Assembly (NCBI GenBank): GCA_964592525.1
Contig: CAZQFB010000001.1
Coordinates: 1,212 to 65,211 of the forward strand
Direction of reading: 5' to 3'
Source of the DNA: an uncultured Candidatus Saccharibacteria bacterium
GTDB taxonomy: Bacteria; Patescibacteriota; WWE3; CAZQFB01
Length of the DNA: 64,000 nt
The notes under the pieces are model-generated. The model worked only from the letters and a program-made list of their open reading frames with translations, was not told the DNA's origin and made no database searches. The translations under genes and the position numbers were made by a program. Below, in pieces: positions 2,067 to 31,359 of this stretch; the stretch's first letter is position 1, and every line of letters starts with the position of its first letter.

Positions 2067-2130
2067 CAGGATTCGAACCTGCGACCTCACGCACCCCATG
2101 CGCGCGCGCTGCCAACTGCGCCACACCCCG
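2055..2130 (-). tRNA. tRNA-Pro (anticodon GGG).
   Basis: Manual cloverleaf. Acceptor CGGGGTG/CACCCCG. D-arm GCGC-AGTTGGCA-GCGC. Anticodon stem CGCGC/GCGTG with loop ATGGGGT (GGG anticodon, G37). T-arm GCAGG-TTCGAAT-CCTGT. Discriminator A and an encoded CCA. Very similar to E. coli proL. Confidence 0.85.
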
Positions 2131-2318
2131 TCTGTTAACTCCTTTAGACTGCCTTTTCGGGTAAGCCCCATACCACAAGATAAGTAGTAAAGGAGAGCGA
2201 CCAACCGCTAAAACCGTACCTTCAATTGTTTCCTTTGAGGTTAATATTGAAGGGTCACACCCCAAAATTCCTTTAGATTTTAATGTTTTTATAGTGCTGT
2301 AGCAAGTGTGATATAGAA

Positions 2319-4382
2319 TTATTCAGGACAGCAGATCCTCTCTCGGGCAATTTCTTCCCACTCCTCTCTATAATAGGCGATTCTTCCAAATTTAGTTGCG
2401 CGATATGTTCTGTAAGTGGGGTAGAGCACCTTACTACTGTCTTCACAGCTAATTCGAGCTTGCCTATAGACGCCACCCATGATTGGGTCAAACGGCAGTA
2501 CGGTGTAAGCACAAGTCGTTTCACAATCCGCGTTTTCTGTGCAAAGATCTGGAGCATCAAGGGTATCTGGTCTTATCTCACAAGTGTTGTCCGGTGTGCA
2601 ATACCTTTGGTAACAGTCCGCATCAAACTTGCAGTCATCGGCTTTATTTCCAGGAACATTCACACAGGTCATATCGACACAAGTTTTGTATTCTGTCAGT
2701 GGCGGTATATAACCTTCAGAATCAAAAGCGCCGGTATGCCTCTCATCATGCAGATGTTGAGGCCAGTCTAGGTATCCCATGGCTAATTCCAGTGAATAAG
2801 CATGTAAAGTCGATGTTTTTCTGTCTAGGTAAGATAAAAAGACTAAGTCGGTCAGACCATCTTGGTTTATATCAGCAATAGCAGCGTGATGCACGATGGT
2901 TTCATTTGCGTCGGTTTGTTTCAGAGTAGGTATTGGTGGATAGACATCTTCTCTAATTGTTTTACCCTCTACTCTGTAGAAATGATAGGCCGGTTCGTTA
3001 TCTGAATTACCATACTTAATAAACTCTTTGTAACCATCACTGTCTATATCTCCTATTACAGTATCCGCAATCCCAGTTTCATAGAATAAGTTGCCTGTTA
3101 TATTAGCAGGATTATTAGGTAGAATAGATATCTCAACTTCTGCACTAGGAGCTCTTCTAAAAGAATTATTCCCACTGGCAACTATAGTGCCCTGTGCATC
3201 GATAATTCTTAGGTTGTTTTCACTATCAATTAAAATTTCTGCTTGACCATCATTATTGAAGTCTGCTACCGACAAATAGACTCTTTTACTTGTGCCTGTA
3301 GCGTAATCTGTGATTTTTGTTCCATCTACTTTATATGCTTGCACATAAACTTCGGAGGAGGTGGTTTCTCTGGTGTCAGTGATAATTTCAAGATTAGAGT
3401 CATCATCAATATTTGCCAGGAGAACATTACCCTTTGTGTGGTTAGTTATTATCTTTGGCCATCCGGGCAAGTAGCCAGAGCCACTTTTGTAGACATAGAT
3501 TGCTCCATACATACCTCCTGTTCCTAGCCGAGTGCCTCGGTTTGCTGGCCAACCGTTGGAAATTACTACCTCTTTATCCACGCCTCCATCTAAGTCTCCT
3601 GCCAGAATATTCGGTGTTTCAGGAAGCGTGTTGTCGATTGATTGGTACATGAGTGAAACGTCATCGTCTGTAACAGTGTTTAGTTTATTGGTTAGTATCT
3701 CGAAGCTGGGGTAGCCTCTGCTTCGACCCCAATCCCACAAGGAGTTGAAAATTATACATTCGTATTCGTTGTTACCATCTAAATCTTCAACCACTAGATT
3801 TTGATTTAATCTAGCAGCACCGAGTGAGCGTTGGTACTGGTTCTCATAGCCTTGGTTATAAAGATGTATCTTTCCCCAATCACTATAGTTAGAGTATTCA
3901 CCATATGCTATATATTTCTCACAATCCTGACAGGAAGCATTGGAGGGGGCTATGGCTGGTAATTCTATATTTTCAATTCTCGCAGCAGCGCCTTGGCTGG
4001 TTGCGCGCTCCCTTTCCAGCTCCTTTATCAAGTAACCCTCGTGGTTAACAACCTGAACGCGATTTGATGTAGCTACAACCACTTCAAGTTCGGGTGTGTT
4101 ATCCACATTACCTACTACAGGTACTAAAGGCTCAGCTTCCTCACTGTTCAGGGAGATGTTAAAGATGCTTTTGTAAGGTAAACCTGTCGGAGAAGCATCA
4201 TCGCTGATACTGCCAGAAGGTACCTCTGCTGCTCGGTTTACATATTGTTGTGTGGAGCGGAGGAACACTAAAGAGAAGGGTAGGGCAAAGAGCACGATAA
4301 AAAGAATTAGCAAACGGTTATAGTTTTTTAAAAAAGCTACAACCTTGGCAGGTGCGTTCATAACAAGCTTAATTATAAACAT
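2319..4382 (-). CDS. Secreted or membrane-anchored FG-GAP/DxDxDG-repeat beta-propeller-like protein with a Cys-rich C-terminal domain.
   Basis: N-terminal transmembrane segment (LLILFIVLFALPFSLVFL). Repeated DLDGNNE, GDLDGGVDKE, ADFNNDGQAE, GDIDSDGYKE and ADINQDGLTD motifs. C-terminus reads CVDMTCVNVPG..CKFDADCYQRYCTPDNTCE..CTENADCETTC. GGAGGAGG Shine-Dalgarno 8 nt upstream of the ATG at 4382. Confidence 0.6.
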   Translation of the reverse strand: MFIIKLVMNAPAKVVAFLKNYNRLLILFIVLFALPFSLVFLRSTQQYVNRAAEVPSGSISDDASPTGLPYKSIFNISLNSEEAEPLVPVVGNVDNTPELEVVVATSNRVQVVNHEGYLIKELERERATSQGAAARIENIELPAIAPSNASCQDCEKYIAYGEYSNYSDWGKIHLYNQGYENQYQRSLGAARLNQNLVVEDLDGNNEYECIIFNSLWDWGRSRGYPSFEILTNKLNTVTDDDVSLMYQSIDNTLPETPNILAGDLDGGVDKEVVISNGWPANRGTRLGTGGMYGAIYVYKSGSGYLPGWPKIITNHTKGNVLLANIDDDSNLEIITDTRETTSSEVYVQAYKVDGTKITDYATGTSKRVYLSVADFNNDGQAEILIDSENNLRIIDAQGTIVASGNNSFRRAPSAEVEISILPNNPANITGNLFYETGIADTVIGDIDSDGYKEFIKYGNSDNEPAYHFYRVEGKTIREDVYPPIPTLKQTDANETIVHHAAIADINQDGLTDLVFLSYLDRKTSTLHAYSLELAMGYLDWPQHLHDERHTGAFDSEGYIPPLTEYKTCVDMTCVNVPGNKADDCKFDADCYQRYCTPDNTCEIRPDTLDAPDLCTENADCETTCAYTVLPFDPIMGGVYRQARISCEDSSKVLYPTYRTYRATKFGRIAYYREEWEEIARERICCPE

Positions 4383-4568
4383 ATTATTCCTCCTCCCTCA
4401 ACATTACGTGATAGCGATGTTAAAAGGACGTTTTTTACTGGTCATTATTTTAAGAGGGGAGTGTAAATAATGGTTTTAATCTGCTACAATTCATACACTA
4501 ATACTGGTAACAAGCGCTGTAGTTTAGTGTATTACCACGTACCTACTTGCCCAAGAAAGGTTATAACC

Positions 4569-5597
4569 ATGCCTAAAAACGAACCGACAGATACCCAAGG
4601 TGATCGCAAAAAAGCTGTGGAAATGGCTTTGGATCAAATTGAAAAACAGTATGGTAAAGGTTCCATTATGCGGATGGGTCAGGATTATATTAGGGAGGGG
4701 ATCAGGGTAATTCCAACTGGCTCATTGGCGCTTGATTTAGCCTTAGGTGTGGGGGGAGTCCCTCGCGGTAGGGTGATTGAGATTTACGGACCCGAATCTT
4801 CTGGCAAGAGCACTTTGGCATTGCACGTGGTGGCGGAAGCTCAAAAGCAGGGAGGAATAGCAGCCTTTATTGATGCCGAACATGCTCTAGACCCCCTTTA
4901 TGCGGAAAGAATTGGGGTTAAGGTGGATGATTTGCTCGTTTCTCAACCGGATACTGGTGAGCAGGCTTTAGAAATTGCTGAAACCTTAGTCCGCTCGGGT
5001 GGGGTGGATGTGTTGGTGATTGATTCGGTGGCGGCGTTGGTGCCTCGAGCTGAAATTGAGGGGGAAATGGGCGATGCTCATATTGGACTGCAAGCTCGCT
5101 TAATGTCCCAAGCACTTCGTAAACTCACTGCGGTGATAGGTCGTTCAGGTGCAACGGTAATTTTTCTTAATCAACTCCGAATGAAGATAGGGGTTATGTT
5201 TGGTAATCCCGAAACTACGGCTGGTGGAATGGCGCTAAAATTTTATTCTTCCGTGCGTATGGATATTCGCGCCATCTCTAAAATCAAAGAAGGTGATGAG
5301 GAACTGGGTGGTCGGCGACGAGTAAAAGTGGTTAAGAACAAAGTAGCACCTCCTTTTCGTATTGCTGAATTTGATCTTATGTACAATGAGGGTATTTCCA
5401 AAGAAGGTGAGATTGTGGATCTGGGTGTAGAGTTTGAAGTTTTGCAGAAAAGTGGTTCTTGGTACCAACACGGCGAGCAGAAATTGGGTCAGGGTCGCGA
5501 AGCAGTAAAAGCTCTCTTGCGTGAGGATCATAAATTGGCTAAGGAACTAACTGAAAAAATAAAAGACAAGGTGCTTTCCCAACACGCGACTAATTAA
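4569..5597 (+). CDS. recA: Recombinase RecA.
   Basis: Walker [11 protein letters not shown]1/L2 regions and the typical RecA N-terminus MPKNEP...[18 protein letters not shown]. The ATG at 4569 is chosen over the longer track ORF. Confidence 0.9.
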
Positions 5598-5598
5598 C

Positions 5599-6213
5599 AT
5601 GCCCCAAATTACCGCCATCAAACCGCAGACAAAAGCCGGTTATTTTAATGTCTTTATTGCTGGTGAGTATGCTTTTTCTCTAGATGAAGTTGGTCTTTTA
5701 AGTTCAGGTATCAGTAAAGGAGATGAGTTGAGTGCTGCTGCCATAACTAAATTAAAGAAACTAGCTGCGCAGACTAAATTATTTAATTCCTTATTGCGCT
5801 ACGTGGGGTTAAGACCAAGAAGCCAGAAAGAAATAGAAGACTACCTTCAGTATCGTAAAAAAGTTAGTGCTACTACAACTAAAGCACTCGTAGCCAAATT
5901 AACTAAGCTTGGTTTAATTGATGACCGAGCTTTTACGAAGTGGTGGGTGGAACAACGAACCAACCAGAAAAAAGGAGAATATGTCATTATCAGGGAACTA
6001 GCTCTCAAAGGAATTAAGGAGAGGGATGTTCGGGAAATGTTTGGGGAGGTTGGCGGTGATGTGCTTACGGATATATCCTCATTAGTACGTAAGAAAAAGC
6101 AGCAGTTGCAGAGTTTACCCCGAAAAGAACAACATCAAAAATTAGCGGCTTTTCTGATGCGCAGAGGTTATCCCTGGGAGCAAATAAAGCAGGTTTTAGA
6201 GCAGGAGTTATAA
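5599..6213 (+). CDS. recX: Regulatory protein RecX.
   Basis: Immediately downstream of recA. The three-repeat helical RecX-like sequence includes GLIDDRAFTKWWVEQR and ELALKGI. Confidence 0.65.
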   Translation: MPQITAIKPQTKAGYFNVFIAGEYAFSLDEVGLLSSGISKGDELSAAAITKLKKLAAQTKLFNSLLRYVGLRPRSQKEIEDYLQYRKKVSATTTKALVAKLTKLGLIDDRAFTKWWVEQRTNQKKGEYVIIRELALKGIKERDVREMFGEVGGDVLTDISSLVRKKKQQLQSLPRKEQHQKLAAFLMRRGYPWEQIKQVLEQEL

Positions 6214-6256
6214 GCTATTATGGCTTTATTTACGCGGATCTGCCGCAAAGGGGTAA

Positions 6257-6286
6257 TTGACAAGAGAGTTATGTCGTGCTATAAAT
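6257..6286 (+). promoter_or_regulatory. Sigma70-like promoter (TTGACA, 17-nt spacer, TATAAA).
   Basis: ttgaca at 6257-6262, a 17-nt spacer, then tataaa at 6280-6285. Confidence 0.55.
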
Positions 6287-6336
6287 CATTGGTGTCAAAA
6301 TGACACCAAGCGAGACATAGTGCTTCAGCTTATGAG

Positions 6337-6366
6337 TCCCCTAATGAGGGGGTTTTATTTTTTATT
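6337..6366 (+). terminator. Rho-independent terminator-like hairpin (CCCCT-AATG-AGGGG then a T-run) inside the greA leader.
   Basis: A 5-bp stem followed by GTTTTATTTTTT, about 50 nt downstream of the promoter and about 18 nt upstream of the greA ATG. Confidence 0.5.
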
Positions 6367-6383
6367 AACACACCTTAAAGAAG

Positions 6384-6854
6384 ATGATAGATAAACAAGC
6401 ACGTATCCTTCTGACCAAGGAAGGTTACCAAAAGCTTAAAGATGAGTACCAAAATTTAGTTGGCGTGAAAAGATCAGAAGTAGCTGAAAAAATTCAGTCT
6501 GCTCGAGAAATGGGTGATTTATCAGAGAATGCAGCCTACCATACGGCAAAAGAAGAACATGCTTATATTGAAGGTCGCATAGCCGAACTTGAAGATATTT
6601 TTCGGAGTGCCGATGTCGTTTCGGGTAAATGTAAGAAAGGTGAAATTGGCATTGGCTCTAAGGTTCATGTTCATATTGAAGGCAGTGATGAAGTTTTTTG
6701 GATTGTGGGCGCACACGAAGCTGATCCGGCTAAGGGTAAAATTTCCCATGAATCACCTATTGGTCAATCTTTGATTGGTCGTAAAGTTGGTGACGAGATT
6801 GAAGTTGAGGCTCCGGTGGGTAAATTGATTTATAAAATCAATAAGGTTGAATAA
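6384..6854 (+). CDS. greA: Transcription elongation factor GreA.
   Basis: N-terminal coiled-coil (LTKEGYQKLKDEYQNL...GDLSENAAYH) and a C-terminal FKBP-like domain. 156 aa. Confidence 0.85.
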   Translation: MIDKQARILLTKEGYQKLKDEYQNLVGVKRSEVAEKIQSAREMGDLSENAAYHTAKEEHAYIEGRIAELEDIFRSADVVSGKCKKGEIGIGSKVHVHIEGSDEVFWIVGAHEADPAKGKISHESPIGQSLIGRKVGDEIEVEAPVGKLIYKINKVE

Positions 6855-8423: not shown

Positions 8424-9667
8424 TTGATCTTAAATGGTTGAAAGAACATCCGGCAGAAGTAAAACAGATGCTCGCTTTAAGAGGGGTAGTGGTGGATATT
8501 GAACGTTTAATTGCTTTGGACAATGAGCGTTTAAAAGTACTGCAAGAAATTGAGGCAATTCGGGCGCAACGCAACGTGCTAACGCAAAATGACCGTGCAC
8601 AGGGTGTGGCGTTAAGGGCACAATTAAAAGAGTTAGAGCCAAAACTTAAAGCCTTGTCCCAAGAAGTCCTGGCGTTGCACGAAAGCATTCCAAATTTGCT
8701 GCATCCAGATGTGCCCGAAGGTACGAGTGAGGCAGATAATACGTTGGTACGTAATTGGTTTCCTACTGGGGAAACACCCCAGACCTTGTCATTTAAAGCT
8801 AAGAGTCATGAAGAACTAATGACTAATCTGGGTTGGTTGGATTTAGAGCGCGGGGCCAAAGTCAGCGGGAGTGGTTTTTTTTACCTAACGAGAGAAGCGG
8901 TATGGTTAGAATTAGCGTTAATCCAGTATGTGCTTAAACTGTCGCAAGCAAAGGGGTTTATCCCAGTTATCACCCCCGAATTGGTCCGGCAAGATTATAT
9001 TGAAGGCACGGGTTATTTGCCCAAGAGAGAAGAACCGGATATTTATAAACTAGATAACGAAGATTTATACCTCATTGCCACGGCCGAGATACCTTTGGCC
9101 GCTATGCATGCGGGAGAATTACTTAGCCAGGAAGAGCTACCCCTAAAGTACATTGGCTTTTCTTCTTGCTTTCGCAAAGAATCGGGTACTTACGGGAAGT
9201 ATCGTCGTGGCATATTTCGGATGCATCAGTTTGATAAGTTGGAGATGTTTGTTTTTACCACTCCTGACCAATCAATGTTAGCCTTTAAAGAAATAATTGA
9301 GTTGGCTGAAGAGATTGTGCAAGGCTTAAAAATACCTTATCAGGTGGTTAATATTTGCGCGGGGGAAATGAATGGTCCCGGTCATCTAAAATATGATCTA
9401 AATTATTATTCACCGGTTGATAACACTTATCGCGAGTTGGGAAGTGGGACTAACACTACTGATTATCAAGCACGACGCCTAAATATTAAATATCGTACTG
9501 CTCCGGGAACAACTGAATACGTGCATACTCTTAATAACACGGCTGCGGCGATGTCTCGTTTACCCATTGCCATAATTGAGAATTACCAGCAAGCAGATGG
9601 TTCGGTATTAATACCAGAAGTGTTACAAGAGTATATTGGTTATGAGGTCATAACAGGAAAAAAGTGA
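8420..9667 (+). CDS. serS: Serine--tRNA ligase.
   Basis: N-terminal coiled-coil arm and class II core (FRKESGTYGKY, RMHQFDKLE, GSG). Overlaps the lysS stop. Confidence 0.85.
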   Translation: MIDLKWLKEHPAEVKQMLALRGVVVDIERLIALDNERLKVLQEIEAIRAQRNVLTQNDRAQGVALRAQLKELEPKLKALSQEVLALHESIPNLLHPDVPEGTSEADNTLVRNWFPTGETPQTLSFKAKSHEELMTNLGWLDLERGAKVSGSGFFYLTREAVWLELALIQYVLKLSQAKGFIPVITPELVRQDYIEGTGYLPKREEPDIYKLDNEDLYLIATAEIPLAAMHAGELLSQEELPLKYIGFSSCFRKESGTYGKYRRGIFRMHQFDKLEMFVFTTPDQSMLAFKEIIELAEEIVQGLKIPYQVVNICAGEMNGPGHLKYDLNYYSPVDNTYRELGSGTNTTDYQARRLNIKYRTAPGTTEYVHTLNNTAAAMSRLPIAIIENYQQADGSVLIPEVLQEYIGYEVITGKK

Positions 9668-10185
9668 AGATAAAACGGAAATTACCTTTAAAAGCTACCC
9701 CCAGTAAAAAATATTTATTGGTTTGGGTAGTGGCTATCTATACTGGTTCAGTGCTAGCTCAATTTGGCGGCTTTTCTGATCTATCTATGTTAGCAATCTG
9801 GGGTCTTTTATTTTCAACGGTAATTACTATCACCCATAGTTTAAAAAACCACCTTACCTCCAAAATGCAGTCTTATCATAACATACTGGTGCTTTGTATG
9901 GGTTTTACCTTTCTTTTTTCACTGCTGTATTTGGTCTTACCCCAAATGACGCAATTGTTACAGCCTTCTTTTGTTTATGCTTTATGGCATTTGGTCATGA
10001 CTATGGGGTATGCCACGATCGTCAAAATATTTAAGGATACGACGCTATTAATCTCATTATTAATTTCTTTGCTCACTCTTAGCTTATATCTGATTCCTCA
10101 ATTTATGGATCTATATCCTTTAATCTTTGGTCTTATACAAGCACCTTTGTTATTAGTGATAGGTTATATTTATTTGCATGACTGA
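9664..10185 (+). CDS. Polytopic membrane protein, function unknown.
   Basis: Multiple hydrophobic segments. Start overlaps the serS stop. Confidence 0.4.
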   Translation: MKIKRKLPLKATPSKKYLLVWVVAIYTGSVLAQFGGFSDLSMLAIWGLLFSTVITITHSLKNHLTSKMQSYHNILVLCMGFTFLFSLLYLVLPQMTQLLQPSFVYALWHLVMTMGYATIVKIFKDTTLLISLLISLLTLSLYLIPQFMDLYPLIFGLIQAPLLLVIGYIYLHD

Positions 10186-10606
10186 TTGGCTGATCTTTAT
10201 TGTGGCGGAGTATTTAATTTACTTAATTGTGTTAGCGTTACCAGTTGTTATTTGGCGTGGCGAATTGAAGTTAGCTTTACGGGGTTTTTATTCTTTAGCT
10301 TCGGCTTATTTTATTGGTTCAATAATCAAATATTTTTTTCCGGTGGCGCGACCGGTAGGTGGGGTTAGTATGCTGGAAGCTCCCGGTTCTTCTTTCCCGT
10401 CTTTACATGCAGCGATGGCTACAGCGGTAGCAGTTTCAATTTTTCTCCAACACCGAAAATATGGCACGGTTCTAATTTTATTAGCAGGGATGGTGAGTGT
10501 AGCTCGAGTATTAGCTAATGTTCATTACACGCTGGATGTTTTGGTGGGGGTTTTGATTGGGGTGGTGGCAGCGTGGTTCATCCACTTAGTGCAGTTATAT
10601 ATTTAA
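10178..10606 (+). CDS. PAP2-family phosphatase (undecaprenyl-PP or lipid phosphatase-like).
   Basis: PAP2 signature motifs KYFFPVARP (KX6RP), FPSLH (PSGH-like) and ARVLANVHYTLD (SRX5HX3D). Confidence 0.65.
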   Translation: MTDWLIFIVAEYLIYLIVLALPVVIWRGELKLALRGFYSLASAYFIGSIIKYFFPVARPVGGVSMLEAPGSSFPSLHAAMATAVAVSIFLQHRKYGTVLILLAGMVSVARVLANVHYTLDVLVGVLIGVVAAWFIHLVQLYI

Positions 10607-10609
10607 AAC

Positions 10610-11374
10610 ATGACCATCTTTCAGGCTATTATACTTGGTGTAATACAAGGGTTAACGGAGTTTTTACCGATTTCTTCTTCGGGGCATTTGATTTTGGTTT
10701 CTATTTTTTTGGGTTGGGAAGTTCAAAGTCTAGCTTTTGATGCAGCGCTTCATTTAGGGACCCTTGGTGCGTTGTTGCTTTATTTTTCTGCGCAGTTAAA
10801 GAACCAGTTACGCAACCCCCTTTTTTTACAGGTGATCTTAATTGGTACTTTACCAGCAGTGGGGTTGGGTTTGCTTTTGAATGATTATCTAGACACGGTG
10901 CTTCGCTCTCCTGTGGTGGTGGGAGTTAATCTAATTTTAATAGCTCTAGTTATGTGGTTTGTGCAGAAACGTGCGCAGTCAAATCGAGATCAGACAAAAC
11001 TTACCAAAATTGATGGTCTCGTCATTGGTCTTTATCAGGCGTTGGCTCTTGTGCCGGGGGTATCTCGCTCGGGTTCAACTATTATTGGTGGTTTACAGCG
11101 GGGCTTGACACTGCCCGAAGCTGCTTCTTTTGCTTTTTTGCTTGGTTTACCTGTAATTGCTGGGGCGGCTTTGTTTAAAGTGATTGCTTTATATTTGAGT
11201 GCTGGTTTGAGTAAGACTGACTTCGGCTTGATGGCGGTTGGTATTGCTAGTGCGGCGGTGGTTGGTTTGCTTACTATTAGATTGCTACTTAAGTATTTGG
11301 GTAGTCATTCTTTGAAAATCTTTATTGTCTACAGAATTATCTTGGGGATTATTGTGCTGTGGTTATTTAGCTAA
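10610..11374 (+). CDS. uppP: Undecaprenyl-diphosphatase (BacA/UppP).
   Basis: N-terminal GVIQGLTEFLPISSSGHL and the internal PGVSRSGSTI motif. Confidence 0.8.
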   Translation: MTIFQAIILGVIQGLTEFLPISSSGHLILVSIFLGWEVQSLAFDAALHLGTLGALLLYFSAQLKNQLRNPLFLQVILIGTLPAVGLGLLLNDYLDTVLRSPVVVGVNLILIALVMWFVQKRAQSNRDQTKLTKIDGLVIGLYQALALVPGVSRSGSTIIGGLQRGLTLPEAASFAFLLGLPVIAGAALFKVIALYLSAGLSKTDFGLMAVGIASAAVVGLLTIRLLLKYLGSHSLKIFIVYRIILGIIVLWLFS

Positions 11375-11419
11375 GGTGGTTACTATTAATGCTATAATCC
11401 GAACACTAATTGGACTTTA

Positions 11420-13969
11420 ATGGCTTCATTTTTAAATAAAATCATTGATCTTAATGAGCGAGAGTTAAAAAAACTCACCCCTCTGGTGGATCAAATTAAT
11501 GCTTTAGAAGCAGAAGTTGCATCTTGGTCAGAAGCGAAGTTTAAGCAGCAAACTACTTTGTTCAAAGAAGAAGTTGGTTCGGCTTCCGACTTGGCTAGCA
11601 GTTTAGATACGGTTTTACCTTTAGCTTATGCCATGGTGAGAGAAGCGGCGGGTCGCACCGTAGGCATGCGTCATTTTGATGTCCAAATTATGGCGGGGAT
11701 AGTTGGTCACCAAGGTAAAATCTTTGAGCAGAAAACTGGAGAGGGTAAGACGCTAACTTCAACTTCACCGCTGTACCTTAACTCCTTGTCTGGTAGATCG
11801 GTGCACTTGGTCACTGTTAACGATTTTTTAGCGCAACTTCATACAGGTTGGAATGGTCCAATTTATTCTTATTTAGGAGTAAGTGTGGCTGCTTTAGTGC
11901 ACGATGGTGCTGTACTATATGATCCCGATTATGTTAACGAGACAGCTAAAGATGCTAGGCTAGTACATTTAAAACCGATTACGCGGCGAGAGGCTTATGC
12001 AGCCGATATTCTTTATGGCACCAATAGCGAGTTTGGTTTTGATTACCTACGAGATAATATGGTTAAAGATTTAAGGCAGAGAGTACAGCGTGATTATTAT
12101 TTTGCTTTGATTGACGAGGTGGATTCAGTTTTGATTGACGAAGCCCGCACGCCTTTGATTATTTCCGCTCCGGCAGAGGAAGCGGTGGATAAGTATTACC
12201 AATTTGCGGAGTTAGCCTCAAAATTAACTGCTAAAACAGATTACGAAGTTGACGAGAAAAGGAAAGCTGCTAGTTTAACAGAGATAGGGGTGCGTAAGCT
12301 AGAAAGATGGTTGGGGGTAGATAATTTATACGAAAAAGATTTTGAAACCTTGCATCATATTGAAAATGCGTTAAGAGCTAATGCTGTTTTTGTTAAAGAT
12401 AAGGATTATGTTGTGCGGGAAGGGGAGCTCATCATTGTGGATGAATATACCGGTCGCTTAATGATCGGCAGGCGTTATAGTGAGGGGTTGCATCAGGCAT
12501 TGGAAGCTAAAGAAAAACTCTCCATCCAAAGGGAATCCCGGACCTTAGCCACCATTACTATCCAGAACTATTTCCGCATGTATGAAAAATTATCGGGTAT
12601 GACGGGTACAGCAAAGACAGAAGAAGAAGAATTTTTTAAGATTTACGGCTTAGAAGTAGTGGTTTTGCCAACTAATAAATCAGTTTGCCGAAAAGATTAT
12701 CATGATGTGGTTTATAAAACAGAAACTGCTAAATATCGTGCCATTGTAAATGAAATTGCGACTTGTTATGAAAAAGGACAACCAGTTTTAATTGGCACCA
12801 CCTCTATTGAGAAAAACGAACTGATGCATGGTTTGCTTAAGCGCAAAGGCGTACCCCATAAACTGCTTAATGCCAAAAACCACTTAGAAGAAGCGTCCAT
12901 TATTGCCGAAGCAGGGCGTTTGGGGGCGGTGACCGTGGCTACTAATATCGCTGGTCGTGGGGTGGATATAGAGTTAGGGGGAGCTGGTCCTAAGAAATAT
13001 GAAGGTGAGGAATGGTCCGCAGAACGCGTGGCGATGTGGCAGCAAGAACATGGTCAAGTGTTGGAACTGGGAGGTCTTCATGTCATTGGTACCGAAAGAC
13101 ATGAATCAAGACGGATTGACAATCAGCTTAGAGGTCGCAGTGGGCGACAGGGTGACCCTGGCTCAAGTCGTTTTTACGTGTCTTTGCAGGATGATTTAAT
13201 GCGTATTTTTGGCGGGGAAAAAATAGCTAGCATGATGAGTACTTTTAAAATTGACGAAAACACGCCGATTGAAGTTGGTTTGATTAGTAAAACTATTGAA
13301 TCATCGCAGAAAAAGGTAGAAGGCTTCCACTTTGATCAGCGCAAGTACTTAGTTGATTTTGATGATGTTAATAATATTCAACGGGAAATTATTTACGCCA
13401 TGAGGCAAAAAATACTTTTAGCTTTAGAAGAGACCGCTACCGTTGATGCTGCCGATTTAGATTTTAAGACTTGGATGCTAGCCAAGTTATCGGCTTACGC
13501 GCCAAATATTAACACGGTTTGGGAGGAAAAAGAAAAAGAGTTGGGGTCGGAATTGTTTTTAGCTATCGTCCAACAAATCACTCTGGATACAATAGATGTT
13601 TTGTGGATGGACACGATTGATGTGCTGTCTAACTTGCGTGAAGACGTTAGTTTGCAAGGTTATGCTCAAAGAGATCCAGTGGTTGAGTATAAAAAAGAAG
13701 CCCGCGCTTTGTTTGATCGATTAATCACTGATATTTTTACTACGGTAGCCGATCGGCTCACTAAATTAACGGCTAATGTTTCTCGGGTGGAAAGGACAGC
13801 AAAACCCTCTGGACTAACCTTTTTGCACCCTGCTAGCAATGCTAATAGTGGGGGGAAAGCTTCTCAAAAACCGGTGACGATTAGAAAAGAGGCTAAAGTA
13901 GGTCGTAATGATCCTTGTCCTTGTGGGAGTGGTAAGAAATATAAAAAATGTTGCGGTCAGAAAGATTAG
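11420..13969 (+). CDS. secA: Preprotein translocase ATPase SecA.
   Basis: 849 aa. DEAD-like motor motifs and a C-terminal zinc finger CPCGSGKKYKKCCG. Confidence 0.9.
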   Translation: MASFLNKIIDLNERELKKLTPLVDQINALEAEVASWSEAKFKQQTTLFKEEVGSASDLASSLDTVLPLAYAMVREAAGRTVGMRHFDVQIMAGIVGHQGKIFEQKTGEGKTLTSTSPLYLNSLSGRSVHLVTVNDFLAQLHTGWNGPIYSYLGVSVAALVHDGAVLYDPDYVNETAKDARLVHLKPITRREAYAADILYGTNSEFGFDYLRDNMVKDLRQRVQRDYYFALIDEVDSVLIDEARTPLIISAPAEEAVDKYYQFAELASKLTAKTDYEVDEKRKAASLTEIGVRKLERWLGVDNLYEKDFETLHHIENALRANAVFVKDKDYVVREGELIIVDEYTGRLMIGRRYSEGLHQALEAKEKLSIQRESRTLATITIQNYFRMYEKLSGMTGTAKTEEEEFFKIYGLEVVVLPTNKSVCRKDYHDVVYKTETAKYRAIVNEIATCYEKGQPVLIGTTSIEKNELMHGLLKRKGVPHKLLNAKNHLEEASIIAEAGRLGAVTVATNIAGRGVDIELGGAGPKKYEGEEWSAERVAMWQQEHGQVLELGGLHVIGTERHESRRIDNQLRGRSGRQGDPGSSRFYVSLQDDLMRIFGGEKIASMMSTFKIDENTPIEVGLISKTIESSQKKVEGFHFDQRKYLVDFDDVNNIQREIIYAMRQKILLALEETATVDAADLDFKTWMLAKLSAYAPNINTVWEEKEKELGSELFLAIVQQITLDTIDVLWMDTIDVLSNLREDVSLQGYAQRDPVVEYKKEARALFDRLITDIFTTVADRLTKLTANVSRVERTAKPSGLTFLHPASNANSGGKASQKPVTIRKEAKVGRNDPCPCGSGKKYKKCCGQKD

Positions 13970-14083
13970 CTTGGCGCTGTTTTTTAAAAGCCAAATGATA
14001 TTAGCTACCGAAGCTATAATTAATAGCACACCTAAATTTACTTTCCATCCTTTGCTAGTGCTTTTTTTGCTAGAATTGTATAT

Positions 14084-15502
14084 ATGCGCTTTAAACTGGG
14101 GTTTTTACTTTTAACTATAGTCTTTAGTAACTTAGCAGCACCTGCTTTTTCAGTTAAAGCCGCCAGCCTTTCCCCCACGGTTAGCACAACACTATTAAAA
14201 AAGAAAAGCTCTTCTTCTTACCACCCTTTAACTGCCCACATTACCCTACACTTAACAATAACCAACGGTAAAATGGATAAGACAGTATTAGTTAAAGATT
14301 ATCTAGCTTCTACCAGATTAAGTCATGATCAAGTAGCGTCCTATTACCCTTATGGTGGTGAGAGATTGAATAGTTCGGATCTTGAAACCGATAAATTATT
14401 TACTAACCACCGCAAGCTGTCTGGAATATCTACTTATCAAATTGGGGCTAGGTTTTATTCGTCTTCTTTGGGAATCTTTGTCCAGCCGGATACTGTACAA
14501 GGAGATAAGTATGTGTACGCAGCAAATAATCCCGTTACTAACTCTGATCCTACTGGTAATATCTGTGAGGGTGTTGATGGCAGTACTTGTCGCCAAGCTA
14601 TTGCTAACTGGTTAATGTGGAATGCAGGTTTGGCTTATGGTTATGCTAGTGAGAAACCTTTGGCTGCTAAGCTGGCTCAACATTTTCTGTATGGTCACGG
14701 TAACCCTATTGATATTTCCACAGAATATGAACAAGCTCTGTTTGAAATTTATACCAGTTCTACGGGTGATTATTCCTTGCTTACTGATCAACAAAGGATG
14801 GCACGGATTAACAGCCAATTAGCTGCTGCCTTTGCACCACAACTCTGGGAAATGACCCCGGATGGTCCTGTGCAAATAAGTTCCGTTGCGGATGCTCGTT
14901 ATGATGTTGAAGTACTATATCCTCCTACAGTGACTAACTTGGCTACAGAGCAATTAGCTAATTTTAGCGAATGCCAACAGGTTAATATATCAGTGGTGGC
15001 AAGCCATCCTTCCGAGGATTTGCACTATGCGCTTAACCGACATACCGTTTCTGTACACGGTTCTCTCTATCAGGTTGCTAACAAGCAAAGTAGCGGTTTA
15101 CCTGTGTGGCAGCTTAGCATCGCTGACCCGCAAGTCTCAATTTATGATAGCTATGATTGGCATGAAGATCGGAGTGATAGTCGGGTCAGCACTTCTTTAT
15201 CTGGCATATTTGCGAAGAGAGGTTTAAACCCACCCCCATGGTTTATGCTTCTTTTTGGTGGTATCTATAATTATGAATTGGGTATGAATCACCATCAAGT
15301 TGGTTTGCTGCTTTCTAATCCTGGTGTAGGCTTAGCTAATACTTTTGATGTCAACGGTAGAATTAACGTTGGTAATGACTTGACTATTATTTTGCCGCAA
15401 GAAGCTGTTCCCCCCAGACCAACAGCGCCAGAAACAGCGCCTGGTTTGGCCTTCCCCGGTAGTGCTAACCGTTCAAACAGACCCGCTGCGCTAATATACT
15501 GA
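14084..15502 (+). CDS. Secreted polymorphic-toxin-like protein: signal peptide, an RHS-repeat-associated core end motif, then an unknown ~330-aa C-terminal domain.
   Basis: Signal peptide MRFKLGFLLLTIVFSNLAAPAFSVKAA. YQIGARFYSSSLGIFVQPDTV...YVYAANNPVTNSDPTGN matches the conserved RHS core terminus (Y.Y..NNP....DP.G). The downstream domain has no recognisable motifs. Confidence 0.55.
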   Translation: MRFKLGFLLLTIVFSNLAAPAFSVKAASLSPTVSTTLLKKKSSSSYHPLTAHITLHLTITNGKMDKTVLVKDYLASTRLSHDQVASYYPYGGERLNSSDLETDKLFTNHRKLSGISTYQIGARFYSSSLGIFVQPDTVQGDKYVYAANNPVTNSDPTGNICEGVDGSTCRQAIANWLMWNAGLAYGYASEKPLAAKLAQHFLYGHGNPIDISTEYEQALFEIYTSSTGDYSLLTDQQRMARINSQLAAAFAPQLWEMTPDGPVQISSVADARYDVEVLYPPTVTNLATEQLANFSECQQVNISVVASHPSEDLHYALNRHTVSVHGSLYQVANKQSSGLPVWQLSIADPQVSIYDSYDWHEDRSDSRVSTSLSGIFAKRGLNPPPWFMLLFGGIYNYELGMNHHQVGLLLSNPGVGLANTFDVNGRINVGNDLTIILPQEAVPPRPTAPETAPGLAFPGSANRSNRPAALIY

Positions 15503-15581: not shown

Positions 15582-17321
15582 TTAGTAAGGGATACAGGTG
15601 TACTGCTTGCCTTCTGACCAAGGTTCGCCGCGCTCGTTATAAATCTGATTTTGATAATCAAACCATTCTTGAGATTGGGGTTCAAAGCAGATATGGATAT
15701 ACTTTTCGCCATCTTCGGTTATGAGTAACCGATTAAGTTCTTTAGTGGCAAAATCTTCTCTTACTTCACCTTCGTCTATTAAGCTGTTTACATCAACCAG
15801 TCCGTTGAGTGAATCACAGGTTAATGGGTTGCCCCTCATTAGCGGACACTGGGCTTGAGGGGGCACTTCTCCCCAAGGGTATTTTTGGAAGGTAGTGTAG
15901 TACCTTTCCAAGGCATTGATGAGTAATGTGGCATCACTTAAAAGTTGCATATCTGTTGCTTGGTCTAATTGTTCAACTGGATCAAGGAGCATTGGCGTAG
16001 CTGCTTCTGCTTCCGCTAATTGGTCTAAATATTCATTGAAGGGTTTTATGATCTCTGCTAATGGTATGTTGCTAACATCTTGAGTGCTGGCAGGTTCTAC
16101 AATATGAATAGGTTGATTGTGCTCGGATAACGTTGTTTCCAGAGAAAAGACAACTCTATCAGGCACCAGTGCTTCTTCGGCTGATACATAATAATCAGGA
16201 TATGACTGAAGGTATCTGGCTCCCAACACATTAGTGTGGTTTGGTAAAAGATAAGCTTGACCGATAGCACTAAAATCAGCTATTTCATATTCGGCCTTGA
16301 TTTTGACTGGAAATTTGGTCTCGCGATCAATACCGTACTGCAAGTCAATGGTGCTACTGCCGGGAGAACCAAAGTAGCGAAAAAGCTCATCAATATTTTG
16401 TTCTACTTGCTGCTTCGTATAACTGGAACTATAAAAATCATCTTCGTCGGTCATTAAAGCTACTAAGAATGATTTGACGGCCTCTTTTTCTAGTTTAATT
16501 AAGGTTAGATAATCGCCTTGTTCCTTTTCTGTTGCTGCTTCTAACTCAATTGCTTTGGCGGATTGTAATAACTTAGAGAGTTCATTTTTAAGTGTGGTAT
16601 GGTTTTTGTTCAAATTAGTTACTTGTTCAGCAATATCTTGATCGGTCCACTGGTTATCCATACTCCACCAAATATTTGTTAGTAAGTCGAGATTAAATAA
16701 TTTAATTTTAGGTCCTCTTTCTAAGAGGAAGTAGGTTTTATTGTTCATCACGATGATTTCACCCCCAATTACAGCAGGCGAATTAGGCACGAGCCCTTCC
16801 CCCATGCCCGGATAGAATATATCCAGACCATCTTTCCAGATTTGCTCATCATAGACATACTCCATAAATACTTTCGCTTTTGCACTGAACTCGACGTCAC
16901 TATCAGTTTCCGTTGAGACTTTCACTGGGGATTGGATTTTAATAGTTAATGAACCTAGGTTAGTACCCTTAGGGTCTTCTATTTTTAAAGATACTTCGCT
17001 AACTTCGTTAAAAGTAGTTAGCCTTTCTGTTGCTTTTAGTGAAGCTACGATCATAGTTTGCGGGGTGCGGGTGAGAGCGTTGCTGTTTAAAAGGGTGAGC
17101 AGGGGGGTTGGTAGCGACATTATTTGCGCTGGGTTTTTGCTTACTTTAGCGATAACTGCAAAAGCGCCAAGTGTTAATACCAACAGCGCGCCAAGGAATA
17201 AAAATATTAGCAGCAGGTGTTTTTTTATGCCGGTAGGGTGGGACTCGTTTGGAGCTATTAAATCATTGTCATTTGAAAGCGTAACATTAGCGGCGGTTTT
17301 GTTTCCAGCTAGGGGCAGCAT
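15582..17321 (-). CDS. Large membrane-anchored extracytoplasmic protein, function unknown.
   Basis: 579 aa with an N-terminal transmembrane anchor (LLLIFLFLGALLVLTLGAFAVIA). It is in an operon arrangement directly downstream of the DUF45 gene. Confidence 0.4.
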   Translation of the reverse strand: MLPLAGNKTAANVTLSNDNDLIAPNESHPTGIKKHLLLIFLFLGALLVLTLGAFAVIAKVSKNPAQIMSLPTPLLTLLNSNALTRTPQTMIVASLKATERLTTFNEVSEVSLKIEDPKGTNLGSLTIKIQSPVKVSTETDSDVEFSAKAKVFMEYVYDEQIWKDGLDIFYPGMGEGLVPNSPAVIGGEIIVMNNKTYFLLERGPKIKLFNLDLLTNIWWSMDNQWTDQDIAEQVTNLNKNHTTLKNELSKLLQSAKAIELEAATEKEQGDYLTLIKLEKEAVKSFLVALMTDEDDFYSSSYTKQQVEQNIDELFRYFGSPGSSTIDLQYGIDRETKFPVKIKAEYEIADFSAIGQAYLLPNHTNVLGARYLQSYPDYYVSAEEALVPDRVVFSLETTLSEHNQPIHIVEPASTQDVSNIPLAEIIKPFNEYLDQLAEAEAATPMLLDPVEQLDQATDMQLLSDATLLINALERYYTTFQKYPWGEVPPQAQCPLMRGNPLTCDSLNGLVDVNSLIDEGEVREDFATKELNRLLITEDGEKYIHICFEPQSQEWFDYQNQIYNERGEPWSEGKQYTCIPY

Positions 17322-18007: not shown

Positions 18008-20635
18008 ATGCGATACTACCAACCGCCATTAATATACCGTTTGTTTTTAGGGTTAATTAACTTTCCTTATTGGTGGTATTTCAGTGGCTCTTTTTGGTTT
18101 TTTGCCTTTTTACTTAGGGTGACCATTGTCGTTGCTGATAAATGGGCTATCAGAACAACCGCACGATTACTTTTAAAGCCCCTTTACCGAGATTACACTG
18201 TAGTGGGGGTGGTGATTGGTCCGATTATTCGCTTTTTGAGGCTGGTGGTGAGTAGTTTGGCTTTGGCAGTGGTTTTATCTGGCTTAACCTTTATCTATTA
18301 TCTGTGGTTAGCCCAACCGTTATTAGCTCTGCTCGCTATAATGGCAGATAAACCCTTTCTTTTAGTTTTATCACTTGGAGTAATGTTAGGGGGGTTTATT
18401 TTCCAACTACATTATTATCTAAGACACCACTTTGAGCCAGTAAGCTCCCAACCTCATAATTTGTATGTTGCCTGTGTTTTACCTGTTCGGCAAATACTCA
18501 ACCGCAGTCAGACAGTCGGTGCGGTTTTTAAGCAATTACCTGGAAGTAGTACGGGTCGTAAGGTGTTAACACGTTTGTCCATAACAAGTGAGTTGCTTCA
18601 AGAGCTAGTGGAAAGTGAGATCGGTCAAAGGCAGTTTGATCCCTCAAAGATTAGCCCCCAACTACTGGAAATTAGTCGGGATTGGGAGAGTGAGTACATT
18701 GGGATTGCTGAATTATTAGCCGCTTTAGTGCTTCATGATGAAGCTTTAGGCGATTTTTTGCAGACCAAAGAGCTAGATTTAGCTTTGTTAAAGGAGGTTG
18801 CGCGCTGGCTGATTCAAGAAGAAAGTTATTTCCACCCCCCCTCTATTTTTAGCGGGAGGTATGAACTAAGGACTCGCGGTGGGGTGAATAAATCTTGGTG
18901 TGCGCGACCTACCCCAGTGCTTGATAAGTATAGTGAGGATTTAACGAAAAAAGTTGAGCTGGGGTATCACCCACCCATAATTGCTAAAGAAAAAGTGATC
19001 GGGGATATTGTTAAGGTTTTATCACGGGCGACTGATGCTAATGCTTTAGTTTTAGGTAACGCTGGGAGTGGTAAAAGCTCGGTGTTGCTTGGTTTAGCCG
19101 AGATGATTATTGACGGTGATCCCCCGCCCGAACTGTGGGATAAAAGGATTGTCGTTTTGAATTCAGCTTCTCTTAGTGCAGGAACCAGAAGTCGGGGGGA
19201 GGTAGAGGCGAGGGTGAAAACCGTGGTGTCAGAAATTAAGCAAGCGGGTAATGTGATTTTAGCTATTGAAGAAATTCATACCTTTTTAAGTACTGGTGAA
19301 CAGGCGGAATTATCCCCTGTCTTTTCGGTCTTGGAAGCTTACCTAGAAGATAAGAATTTGAGTATTATTGGTACTAGTTCTTATGTGCAATATCATAAAT
19401 ATATTGAAGCGAACAATGCATTTGCTCGGCACTTTCATTTAGTGGAGTTAGCAGATGCAACTGAAGAACAAACTGCCGAGTTATTAAAGTACAAGGCTTT
19501 ATTATTAGAAAAAGAATACCCGGTTCAGATTAGTTATCCTGCCTTAGAAGAAGCCATTACTCTTTCCGATCGCTATATCCATGAACGAGTTTTCCCGGAT
19601 AAAGCTATTGATTTGCTGGAGTCGGCAGTGGTTCAAGTAGAAAAAAGTAAACCCCACGTGCTTATTACCAAAGCCCAGCTCATGGAAGCTGCCGCCGAAA
19701 GAGCACATATCCCCTTAGGGGTTATCTCGGCTGATGAGTCGGCCACTTTGCTGTCGTTGGAAAAAGCTTTACACAAAAGGGTAGTGGATCAGCGAGAGGC
19801 TATTGCCAAAGTGGCTGATATCTTGCGTCGTGCTCGGGTCGGTATTGTTGACAGTAGTAGACCAATTGGGTCTTTGTTACTGGTGGGACCAACTGGGGTG
19901 GGTAAAACAGAAATTGCCCGTGCTTTAGCCCGTGAATACTATGGTAGTGAAGAGGTGATGATCCGTTTGGATATGTCTGAATATCAAGAGCCTAGTAGTG
20001 TTTATCGGTTGATTGGGGCGCCTTTGGGTAAGGGTGAAACGGAAGGATTTTTGACTGAAGCTATTAGGCGTCGCCCTCATTCTTTAGTCTTGCTTGATGA
20101 GCTTGAAAAAGCCGAGAGGCATGTGCTCGATATCTTTTTGCAGGTTTTAGAAGATGGTCGCTTGAGTAGCGGTTCGGGTGTGGTGGTTGATTTTACCAAC
20201 GCTTTGATTATTGCGACCTCTAATGTGGGTGCCGATTTAATTCTGCGGACGGTGCGGAGTGGTTTAAGCCTAGAGAGTATTAAGTTACGTTTAGAAAGTT
20301 TATTAAATCAAGCATTTAGACCAGAATTTCTGAATCGGTTTGACGGTATTGTCTATATGAAAGCATTATCCAATAGGGAAATGGAAGAAATTGCCATTAT
20401 GATGCTGACTAAATTAGCAGACAGACTCAAAGAAAAGTATGACATTCAGTTGCAGTATCAGCCAGAGTTTATTGTGGCGTTAGCTAAAAAAGGATATGCT
20501 CCGGAGTTGGGGGCACGACCTTTAAGGCGCTTGATCCAGGATAAAGTTGAAGCTTATCTGGCTAAAGTGTTATTAGCTAAAGAAGTTCAACCGGGTGGTG
20601 TTATTGTGTTGGGTGCAGAATTATTAGTTGATTAA
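18008..20635 (+). CDS. ClpA/ClpC-like double AAA+ ATPase with an N-terminal polytopic membrane domain.
   Basis: About 170 N-terminal residues with four or more hydrophobic helices. D1 Walker A GNAGSGKSS and D2 Walker A GPTGVGKTE. Clp-type sensor and arginine-finger regions. Apparently no long M-domain coiled-coil. Confidence 0.75.
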   Translation: MRYYQPPLIYRLFLGLINFPYWWYFSGSFWFFAFLLRVTIVVADKWAIRTTARLLLKPLYRDYTVVGVVIGPIIRFLRLVVSSLALAVVLSGLTFIYYLWLAQPLLALLAIMADKPFLLVLSLGVMLGGFIFQLHYYLRHHFEPVSSQPHNLYVACVLPVRQILNRSQTVGAVFKQLPGSSTGRKVLTRLSITSELLQELVESEIGQRQFDPSKISPQLLEISRDWESEYIGIAELLAALVLHDEALGDFLQTKELDLALLKEVARWLIQEESYFHPPSIFSGRYELRTRGGVNKSWCARPTPVLDKYSEDLTKKVELGYHPPIIAKEKVIGDIVKVLSRATDANALVLGNAGSGKSSVLLGLAEMIIDGDPPPELWDKRIVVLNSASLSAGTRSRGEVEARVKTVVSEIKQAGNVILAIEEIHTFLSTGEQAELSPVFSVLEAYLEDKNLSIIGTSSYVQYHKYIEANNAFARHFHLVELADATEEQTAELLKYKALLLEKEYPVQISYPALEEAITLSDRYIHERVFPDKAIDLLESAVVQVEKSKPHVLITKAQLMEAAAERAHIPLGVISADESATLLSLEKALHKRVVDQREAIAKVADILRRARVGIVDSSRPIGSLLLVGPTGVGKTEIARALAREYYGSEEVMIRLDMSEYQEPSSVYRLIGAPLGKGETEGFLTEAIRRRPHSLVLLDELEKAERHVLDIFLQVLEDGRLSSGSGVVVDFTNALIIATSNVGADLILRTVRSGLSLESIKLRLESLLNQAFRPEFLNRFDGIVYMKALSNREMEEIAIMMLTKLADRLKEKYDIQLQYQPEFIVALAKKGYAPELGARPLRRLIQDKVEAYLAKVLLAKEVQPGGVIVLGAELLVD

Positions 20636-28932: not shown

Positions 28933-29045
28933 CACCATCCAGTCCTTTCCCTAGCAAGCAAACATGGTTACTTCAGCTTTTCCTCGCTACATGTTTTAGT
29001 TATTTGCTGTTAAGTCTGGAGTGATAAATAACGGGAAAATGAAGC

Positions 29046-29081
29046 AACCCCGCCTTTGGCATAGTGCCGAAAGGCGGGGTT
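29046..29081 (-). terminator. Strong GC-rich hairpin (AACCCCGCCTTTGGC / GCCGAAAGGCGGGGTT) downstream of the island minus-strand gene. Possibly bidirectional.
   Basis: A 15-16 bp stem with one bulge, followed on the minus strand by TTCATTTTCCC. Confidence 0.5.
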
Positions 29082-29093
29082 GTGCGTTGCTAG

Positions 29094-29600: not shown

Positions 29601-29716
29601 TTGCGTTTTCCTTTCTCTCTCCTTCGGGGGGTCTGCCCCGTAAGGATGGAATTGATGGCGGTGGTCCGTATCCAACCGCCTTAGGCTAGAAGACACCATA
29701 TCATAGACCCATAGTG

Positions 29717-29745
29717 TTGTCAAAGGGGTTGCGGTGTGTTATAGT
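29717..29745 (+). promoter_or_regulatory. Sigma70-like promoter (TTGTCA, 17 nt, TATAGT) driving island genes B and C.
   Basis: ttgtca at 29717-22, a 17-nt spacer, tatagt at 29740-45. AAGGAG Shine-Dalgarno at 29782-87 with a GTG start at 29794. Confidence 0.5.
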
Positions 29746-29793
29746 CTTGATCAATTCAGCGTTCGGCTGAAAAGCCTTGATAAGGAGTATTCC

Positions 29794-30285: not shown

Positions 30286-30309
30286 TACCTAGCCAAAGGA
30301 GAAGAAGCA

Positions 30310-30690: not shown

Positions 30691-30696
30691 TTTCAG

Positions 30697-31353: not shown

Positions 31354-31359
31354 AATGAA

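Follow-up and report, generated by a model that had tools for sequence, protein, structure and literature searches.

In the accepted model of RHS (rearrangement hotspot) toxins, the toxin has to be held by a cocoon, outside which the plug protease does not work. Colicin M (ColM) is lethal to bacteria because it destroys lipid II, a precursor of the cell wall, and is, to our knowledge, the only colicin that attacks peptidoglycan synthesis. Features of both meet in a gene on contig CAZQFB010000001.1 of an uncultured Candidatus Saccharibacteria bacterium, of which a stretch of 64 kb (the window) was analysed. At positions 14084-15502 of the plus strand, which carries all the features of this gene, it encodes an exported protein of 472 residues made up of a signal peptide, an RHS core end, a ColM-like C-terminal domain (the tip) and a Pro-rich tail. 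The feature is real: it is a putative RHS toxin without its shell, and its tip, a previously unannotated domain, resembles ColM while lying outside the known ColM family.

The ColM class, which comprises ColM, PaeM (pyocin M), syringacin M and the pectocins and is described by the model PF14859, has been placed in gamma- and beta-proteobacteria, where import depends on TonB (PMC5821083, PMC8469651). Its enzymes are active only from outside the membrane, are lethal via Sec and cleave Gram-positive lipid II in vitro (PMC8469651). Like these proteins, the tip has a helical part followed by a beta-rich catalytic part and carries the same collinear motifs (HxLxGxG...D/N-I, LxxxT[VL]xxxG and the catalytic DxYD[WF]); it is likewise predicted to act outside the cytoplasmic membrane, and in both cases the gene downstream is convergent and its product membrane-anchored. 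Unlike them, the tip has an insert of ~55 residues between motifs 1 and 2, and its family is found outside the gamma- and beta-proteobacteria. The protein also lacks a TonB box and a receptor-binding domain, in place of which it has a Sec signal and an RHS core, and its stand-alone relatives mostly have signals of the twin-arginine translocation (Tat) type.

Compared with canonical RHS/YD toxins (Pseudomonas protegens RhsA, TcC and WapA), the protein keeps the core, the PxxxxDPxG motif and two aspartates at the positions of the catalytic dyad, and in both cases hypervariable tips follow a conserved N-terminal module. It differs in having ~60 residues ahead of the core instead of ~1,000 or more, in having no cocoon and no adjacent immunity gene, and in carrying Asn rather than W, L or F at the cleavage position. 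Orphan rhs C-terminal cassettes similarly consist of a core end and a tip without a shell. However, the gene described here and its close relatives have a start codon and a signal peptide, and the window contains no main rhs gene upstream.

A functional analogue among polymorphic-toxin tips may be TelC of Streptococcus intermedius, a lipid II phosphatase of the LXG/type VII secretion system (T7SS) group, which is described as attacking the lipid II of monoderm bacteria from the outer side of their membrane (PMC5555719, PMC6193138). TelC is delivered by the T7SS and has a known cognate immunity protein, TipC; because it is assigned to the Lipocone assemblage (PMC12419801), its fold and family are unrelated to those of the tip. 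The same paper (Burroughs et al. 2025, eLife, PMC12419801) notes in passing a new toxin domain that it assigns to the fold of colicin M, so that divergent ColM tips have a precedent. By that description, on which alone the comparison is based, both would be divergent ColM-fold tips in polymorphic-toxin-like systems. The domain of Burroughs et al. is found on cystatin-like lipoprotein or 'broken-hairpin' N-termini together with membrane-anchored, BamE-like immunity proteins, and the remarks devoted to it mention neither RHS-core nor Tat-signal forms. Neither colicin M nor lipid II figures in a 2012 polymorphic-toxin survey, and a literature search found no link between RHS toxins and bacteria of the Candidate Phyla Radiation.

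A shell-less RHS protein and its relatives

The NCBIfam model TIGR03696 (Rhs_assc_core) matches residues 87-158 (window 14342-14557) over model positions 1-75 of 76, with 47.9 bits against a cutoff of 32.5 and an E-value of 1.4e-12, and the core-end motif is therefore far beyond chance. A first-pass annotation, made from the DNA letters alone, had described a signal-peptide protein with an RHS core terminus at 14084-15502; both of the strings that it quoted are present, and the match above the cutoff means that the motif it had picked out is not spurious. The protein carries P150-VTNS-D155-P-T-G158-N159, which corresponds to PxxxxDPxG, with D136 upstream. D1324 and D1346 make up the autoprotease dyad of P. 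protegens RhsA, in which the cut follows a W, L or F after PxxxxDPxG (PMC8765631). By this consensus, D136 and D155 form a putative aspartyl-autoprotease dyad and the predicted autocleavage junction is N159/I160 (14558-14563). D136, D155, P156, G158 and N159 are invariant between the protein and its relatives in the alignment, and DPxGN is common to the protein, P0002, P0003, P0004 and the L024 locus. Because the dyad and the residues of the PxxxxDPxG motif are invariant, the catalytic apparatus of the core end looks intact. Sequence searches of the PDB with the whole protein and with a profile of the tip family returned weak matches of the core segment to mosquito SGS proteins (...ARLYDPDIGRF...NSPVSxxDPDG aligned) and nothing else relevant.

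The shell that usually precedes such a core is absent, as the first-pass annotation had already noted. A Pfam search of the 472 residues gave no family match, including none to the RHS/YD repeat models PF05593 and PF25023, and a six-frame scan of the entire window found no YD-like motif. PAAR, VgrG and domains associated with type VI secretion (T6SS) or T7SS are also absent from the protein, and the only export signal is a Sec signal peptide. This occupies residues 1-26 (14084-14161; MRFK, a hydrophobic core, then AFS-VKA), and by inspection the N-terminus MRFKLGFLLLTIVFSNLAAPAFSVKA has the Sec-type n/h/c layout and no lipobox Cys. Only ~60 residues then separate the signal peptide from the core. 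This pre-core segment (residues 27-86, 14162-14341) includes DYLASTRL, which is DHLGS-like, and it can be aligned with P0002, P0003 and P0004, among which its positions L69, D72, L74 and S76 do not vary; the segment appears to be a remnant of the last shell strands. At the other end, the Pro-rich tail (residues 441-472, 15404-15499) is predicted to be disordered, with a predicted local distance difference test score (pLDDT) below 50 over its last 18 residues. An identical copy of the gene is present on two Logan contigs from sister samples. On one sister-sample contig (L039), which is 100% identical to window 8924-14168, the gene seemed to be missing after secA; this was rejected as an artefact of the contig end. 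Scans for promoters and terminators around 14084-15502 gave background levels.

Searches of a word-indexed database of 5.8 billion proteins gave three relatives with the whole protein and two hits with a profile. P0002, P0003 and P0004 match over residues ~22-165 only, at 36-50% identity (48% with P0002 from residue 22 onward), and are fully divergent after that. A genome scan with the alignment of the N-terminal part yielded 21 loci, which fall into four classes by the length of protein ahead of each core end. In the first, a signal peptide and the core end lie within 138-171 residues (the window, L002 with three tandem genes, L003 and L024), while the second has a signal peptide and a few YD repeats (two genes at L005, and P0004). 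The third consists of orphan core-plus-tip fragments without a start (the Chloroflexia loci L007 and L009-L012), and the fourth of full-length RHS proteins of 1,689-2,842 residues, including some from metagenome-assembled genomes (MAGs) of Magasanikbacteria and Patescibacteria. Every relative of the short form has its own start codon and an equivalent N-terminal signal, and the tips differ, one being a Trypsin_2 peptidase and the others being without annotation. A conserved N-terminal module joined to unrelated tips is the pattern of polymorphic toxins, here in a 'mini-RHS' form that lacks the shell. The suspicion of a polymorphic toxin, raised in the first-pass annotation from a core end followed by a variable tip, is thus borne out by the curated profile and by the unrelated tips of the relatives. 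Among the three options offered there, a minimal secreted toxin fits best, and the start codon and signal peptide present both in the gene and in every close relative speak against an orphan or displaced tip.

Among mini-RHS loci whose source is named, the closest is L002, from a MAG of Microgenomates bacterium OLB23, a member of the Candidate Phyla Radiation (LMZU01000016.1, 1469-10479). Here RHS-repeat open reading frames (ORFs) of 979, 516 and 216 residues (PF05593, E 5.8e-15), which may be pieces of a single gene, stop without a core end. Three back-to-back genes follow directly, whose products differ in their tips but all have a signal peptide and a core end; the mature N-termini of these products start where the shell sequence stops. 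Judged from the ORFs, this looks like an arrangement in which the shell and the plug-plus-toxin part are split. No immunity genes lie between the three mini-RHS genes. Elsewhere (L003, L024 and L040), mini-RHS genes have no adjacent shell. No evident immunity partner was found beside other mini-RHS genes either, the gene downstream at L040 being ATPase-like.

Resemblance of the tip to colicin M

The region after the cleavage motif measures 313 residues, somewhat less than the ~330 first estimated. No Pfam or NCBIfam family covers the tip domain in a search of 26 members. In an exhaustive phmmer search of 1.84 billion representative proteins, residues 160-472 found 27 proteins (best E 1e-14), of which a 1061-residue repeat protein (P0009) was dropped, its match being a low-complexity one to the Pro-rich tail. 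The remaining family of ~26 clusters consists of proteins of 320-414 residues, mostly stand-alone, in which the domain forms the C-terminal ~260 residues; a scan of metagenomes for further loci gave a single one (L038). HFLYGxG and DxYDW are conserved in this family, and the initial description of a domain with no recognisable motifs therefore has to be revised. The proposal that the tip is a novel effector domain is partly right, the domain being unannotated in Pfam and NCBIfam but, by structure and profile comparisons (Foldseek and hhalign), apparently a distant relative of ColM.

An [ST]RRxFL twin-arginine motif stands at the start of 20 of 25 members and also of the metagenomic L038 protein. 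Tat models match below their thresholds, TIGR01409 in eight members (best E 0.0027) and Pfam TAT_signal with E-values from 2.5e-4 to 0.012, which is under its gathering cutoff. Two other stand-alone members have a Sec-type membrane anchor. P0012 at L024 is, once its start is corrected, a second mini-RHS protein with the same tip: a signal peptide, DYLSSTRL and a core end with DPSGN precede the domain, and the protein matches TIGR03696 at 2e-16. Since Tat-type signals, Sec anchors and the mini-RHS form are all seen, the domain is probably exported by three routes. The use of several export routes by one domain is typical of toxin domains. At the start of the domain, a pair of Cys residues was observed in RHS-fused and membrane-anchored members (C-x7-C, C-x6-C and C-x10-C in the protein itself, L024 and P0013/P0028; in the former it is C161...C169, window 14564-14590), while Tat-type members have an EGNxxQR helix there instead.

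The tip (residues 165-440, 14576-15403) comprises a helical N-terminal part, a variable insert and a beta-rich part predicted to be catalytic, and it resembles ColM in fold and in motifs. For an AlphaFold model of the domain (pLDDT 72), the four best PDB matches include syringacin M and colicin M, the statistics being weak. An independent AlphaFold model of the family member P0008 is better defined (pLDDT 91.8, predicted template modelling score 0.87), and in Foldseek searches of 350,542 PDB chains its first match is syringacin M (E 5.7e-3, probability 0.97), followed by PaeM (E 9.4e-3, probability 0.95) and colicin M (E 0.31, probability 0.14), with all lower-ranked matches at a probability of 0.08 or less. 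Template modelling scores (TM-scores) are only 0.24-0.35.

Profile comparison with hhalign points the same way. Against a diverse ColM-class profile built from cma and divergent genes on plasmids of Serratia, Pantoea, Rahnella, Klebsiella and enterotoxigenic Escherichia coli, the family profile aligns with a probability of 57.8% (P 1e-4), whereas a shallow first ColM profile, made from database matches of which some were frameshifted, gave only 8.6%. The full alignment pairs ALNRHTVSVHG...IYDSYDW with YLGNITLKTEG...DDKYDFN. Aligned alone, the N-terminal part of the domain pairs AQHFLYGHGNPIDIS with LAHYLWGNGAERSVN of ColM (P 2.4e-4), and the C-terminal part alone gives a match (P 3.4e-4) that is collinear with it. 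Column-shuffled family profiles score 12 ± 2.2 (maximum ~20) compared with observed scores of 28.5, 32.3 and 38.2, each of which was reached by none of 150 shuffled controls.

Motif 1 of the tip, QHFLYGHGNPIDIS (14678-14719; H200, G204, G206 and D210), corresponds to ColM residues 133-147, and its His is present in 24 of 25 members. Motif 2, ALNRHTVSVHG (15029-15061), was delimited by hhalign and column conservation and corresponds to ColM YLGNITLKTEG (195-205). Motif 3, IYDSYDW (15140-15160), contains the predicted catalytic D355-x-Y357-D358 and aligns with ColM D226-K-Y228-D229-F; D355 and Y357 are conserved in all 26 members, D358 in 25 and the Trp in 24. Its DxYD is in register with ColM in every hhalign run, and in L038 the motif reads DKYDF, as in ColM itself. 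Alanine mutants of D226, Y228 and D229 in ColM lose more than 98% of activity (PMC8469651), and the first Asp binds the catalytic Ca2+ or Mg2+ in syringacin M and PaeM (PMC8469651, PMC5821083). As a separate observation, residues 118-163 of the colicin M encoded at L030, which include HYLWGNG, match the CW_7 module of Cpl-7 lysozyme in sequence (E 2.9e-4; PDB 5i8l, 4cvd), and motif 1, which is common to ColM and the new family, may be a muropeptide-binding element.

Genomic setting and the question of immunity

The next gene is convergent, 79 bp away (15582-17321, minus strand), and no same-strand immunity gene follows, in agreement with the first-pass annotation. This ORF encodes 579 residues with a single N-terminal transmembrane helix (~residues 30-62, from a hydropathy scan), has no Pfam or NCBIfam family and has no homologue in any of the fetched loci. 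As it belongs to no family and has no relatives near other genes of the tip family, it is a candidate for an immunity or partner protein by position only. The immunity gene of ColM loci is typically small, membrane-anchored and convergent just downstream, a geometry that 15582-17321 mimics with respect to cma-cmi; in the ColM-class plasmid loci L030, L032, L034, L035 and L036, the downstream gene is mostly small and convergent (cmi, YebF-family or hypothetical). Small ORFs beside the tip-family genes offered no informative immunity candidate, and the search of relatives, which did turn up the same tip on a second mini-RHS protein (P0012), yielded no cognate immunity gene. The absence of immunity partners would suit effectors directed against other species and, just as well, a role other than that of a toxin.

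The upstream flank of the locus encodes RecA, RecX, two aminoacyl-tRNA synthetases, PAP2, BacA/UppP and SecA, and the other flank a YgjP-like protein, a ClpB-like ATPase, a release factor, and FtsEX together with an M23 peptidase; base composition at the mini-RHS locus is ordinary, without anomaly. The PAP2-type phosphatase (~10178-10606) and BacA/UppP (10610-11374), both of undecaprenyl-pyrophosphate-phosphatase type, lie just upstream of secA. That two genes for phosphatases of the lipid-carrier pathway stand near a gene predicted to target lipid II may be a coincidence. Elsewhere in the window, a GC-rich patch at 29000-31400 (0.47-0.485 against ~0.42) has overlapping ORFs of 126-209 residues that lie on both strands and are unusual in composition. 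Searches of this patch for tandem repeats and Rfam families gave nothing; it may be a small acquired island. The housekeeping proteins of the window that were checked (e.g. 11420-13966, 18008-20632 and 44561-46174) are all singleton clusters at 90% identity, and the lineage is poorly sampled. That the genome is a reduced one, as the first-pass annotation assumed, is plausible.

Proposed mode of action and its alternatives

On balance we consider it probable that the protein is a Sec-exported, shell-less polymorphic effector with an RHS core and a self-releasing, lipid II-targeting, ColM-like tip. Sec would export the 472-residue protein, and the RHS core end would then act as an aspartyl-protease release module that, through D136 and D155, cuts after N159 and frees a tip of ~310 residues. 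By analogy with ColM, PaeM and syringacin M, the tip would be a metal-dependent phosphoesterase acting on lipid II or a related precursor linked to undecaprenyl pyrophosphate, at the outer face of the target-cell membrane, where it would block wall synthesis. The action of ColM enzymes outside the membrane fits a tip enzyme that is exported by Sec or Tat. Since the protein has no TonB box, receptor domain or shell, the expected targets are neighbours or hosts without an outer-membrane barrier. Autocleavage, lipid II hydrolysis, the target range and the toxin role are in this sense what we infer from things that are themselves observed: a gene, a core-end homology, the lack of a shell, a set of polymorphic tips, a tip family with export signals, and a likeness to ColM in fold and motifs.

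Several observations weigh against this proposal. PF14859 and all NCBIfam models match none of the 26 family members even at E<=1, while ColM-class positive controls on the same models score 3e-154, 3e-38 and 1.8e-25. Nothing conserved in the family corresponds to the x5HR half of DxYDx5HR, the ColM signature, and R236 is essential in ColM (PMC8469651); known ColM-type proteins are also degenerate in this half of the signature (PMC5821083). The protein has H403 and Q405 (MNHHQVGLL, residues 401-409, 15284-15310) where the family has IxDxDG, a variant with 'HHQ' that it shares with P0016 and P0017 and that, to judge from the residues, might provide another pair of metal ligands or else indicate a changed activity. 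Because the curated models miss it, the HR half is absent, the TM-scores are low and IxDxDG is replaced, the tip is set outside PF14859 and is treated as a new, very divergent relative of the ColM fold. As to release, Asn occupies the predicted cleavage residue where RHS proteins usually have W, L or F, and the core end has no cocoon, to the interior of which the accepted model confines the plug protease; for these two reasons, autocleavage after N159 is put forward here as a prediction. No immunity gene was identified. Finally, the Tat-type member at L038 (Ga0075800_1076, 1434-6769) lies between a GT2 glycosyltransferase and a 1110-residue polytopic membrane protein, whose ORF overlaps the 3' end of the family gene. 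To judge from this setting, at least some of the stand-alone members may belong to an envelope-glycan context.

The last two points lead to an alternative in which the ColM-like tip serves the producer's own envelope, for example in the processing or recycling of its glycan intermediates linked to polyprenyl pyrophosphate, and the RHS core is a leftover linker. The missing immunity gene, the position amid housekeeping genes directly after PAP2, BacA/UppP and SecA without any compositional anomaly, and a further stand-alone member that follows an SGNH/AlgX-like gene all agree with such a role, and the neighbours of the L038 member keep it alive. However, the RHS core ends known so far carry toxin tips, and the same N-terminal module with unrelated tips, including a protease, is the pattern of a conflict system. 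The family is moreover rare and patchy (27 representatives among 1.84 billion), and all characterised enzymes of the ColM fold are bacteriocins (PMC5821083, PMC8469651), so that we regard a role in the producer's envelope as unlikely. A similarly low probability is given to the idea that the resemblance to ColM is coincidental or a mere scaffold and that the tip is a new effector domain with another target, such as a lipid head group, a glycan or a protein. The failure of curated ColM hidden Markov models on the family, TM-scores that do not exceed 0.35, the loss of the essential H and R of the signature and the low hhalign probability obtained with the shallow ColM profile speak for it. It is countered by the ColM-class structures among the top matches of two independent models, by three collinear motif blocks that include the exact catalytic DxYD (with DKYDF in L038), and by shuffled controls that come nowhere near the observed scores.

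Two further alternatives concern the RHS part. The protein could be the detachable plug-plus-toxin half of a split RHS system that leaves the cell on its own and docks in trans on a YD-repeat shell encoded elsewhere in the genome, and several alternative tips could therefore share one shell. L002 offers a model for this, with its RHS-repeat ORFs that end short of a core and, immediately after them, three core-plus-tip genes whose mature products resume at the shell end; in Tc toxins, too, a single cocoon is assembled from TcB and TcC (PMC8765631). However, the 64 kb examined contain neither a gene nor a motif of YD repeats, the mini-RHS genes at L003, L024 and L040 have no shell beside them, the shell ORFs of L002 have a fragmented appearance that might reflect gene decay, and trans-assembly of this kind has no demonstrated precedent, which makes a split system distinctly improbable. 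Least credible of all, and in our opinion very improbable, is that the gene is a silent cassette of the kind found in classical rhs orphan arrays, where toxin ends are stored until they recombine into a full-length rhs gene. The conserved core end, which would serve as the recombination handle, is retained, and core-plus-tip fragments without a start do exist in the Chloroflexia loci. Nevertheless, the gene has its own ATG and a signal peptide, both conserved in relatives (compare P0002), it lies by itself among housekeeping genes, the window contains no main rhs gene, and the ORF is intact and identical in two samples.

If the reading as an exported, self-releasing ColM-like effector is true, a family of ColM-like proteins that are exported by Sec or Tat and, in part, plugged by RHS cores widens the range, the delivery modes and the sequence space of lipid II-degrading enzymes. 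Such enzymes are attractive as antibacterial leads, since those of the ColM type cleave the lipid II of Gram-positive bacteria when they gain access to it. RHS proteins with a signal peptide that are cut down to the core end also question the accepted cocoon model, and mini-RHS proteins are a small, tractable system for asking whether the RHS autoprotease functions alone or in trans. A more far-reaching possibility, which we regard as doubtful, is that mini-RHS proteins are a distinct secretion-and-release system of ultra-small or monoderm bacteria, a cocoon-free or, as L002 hints, trans-docking, self-cleaving adaptor for interchangeable effectors exported by Sec. The ColM-like tip would then be a new lipid II-cleaving clade outside the Proteobacteria, exported in many ways (by Sec, by Tat and with RHS cores), with which an episymbiont might kill its host or harvest the host's wall precursors without needing an immunity protein.

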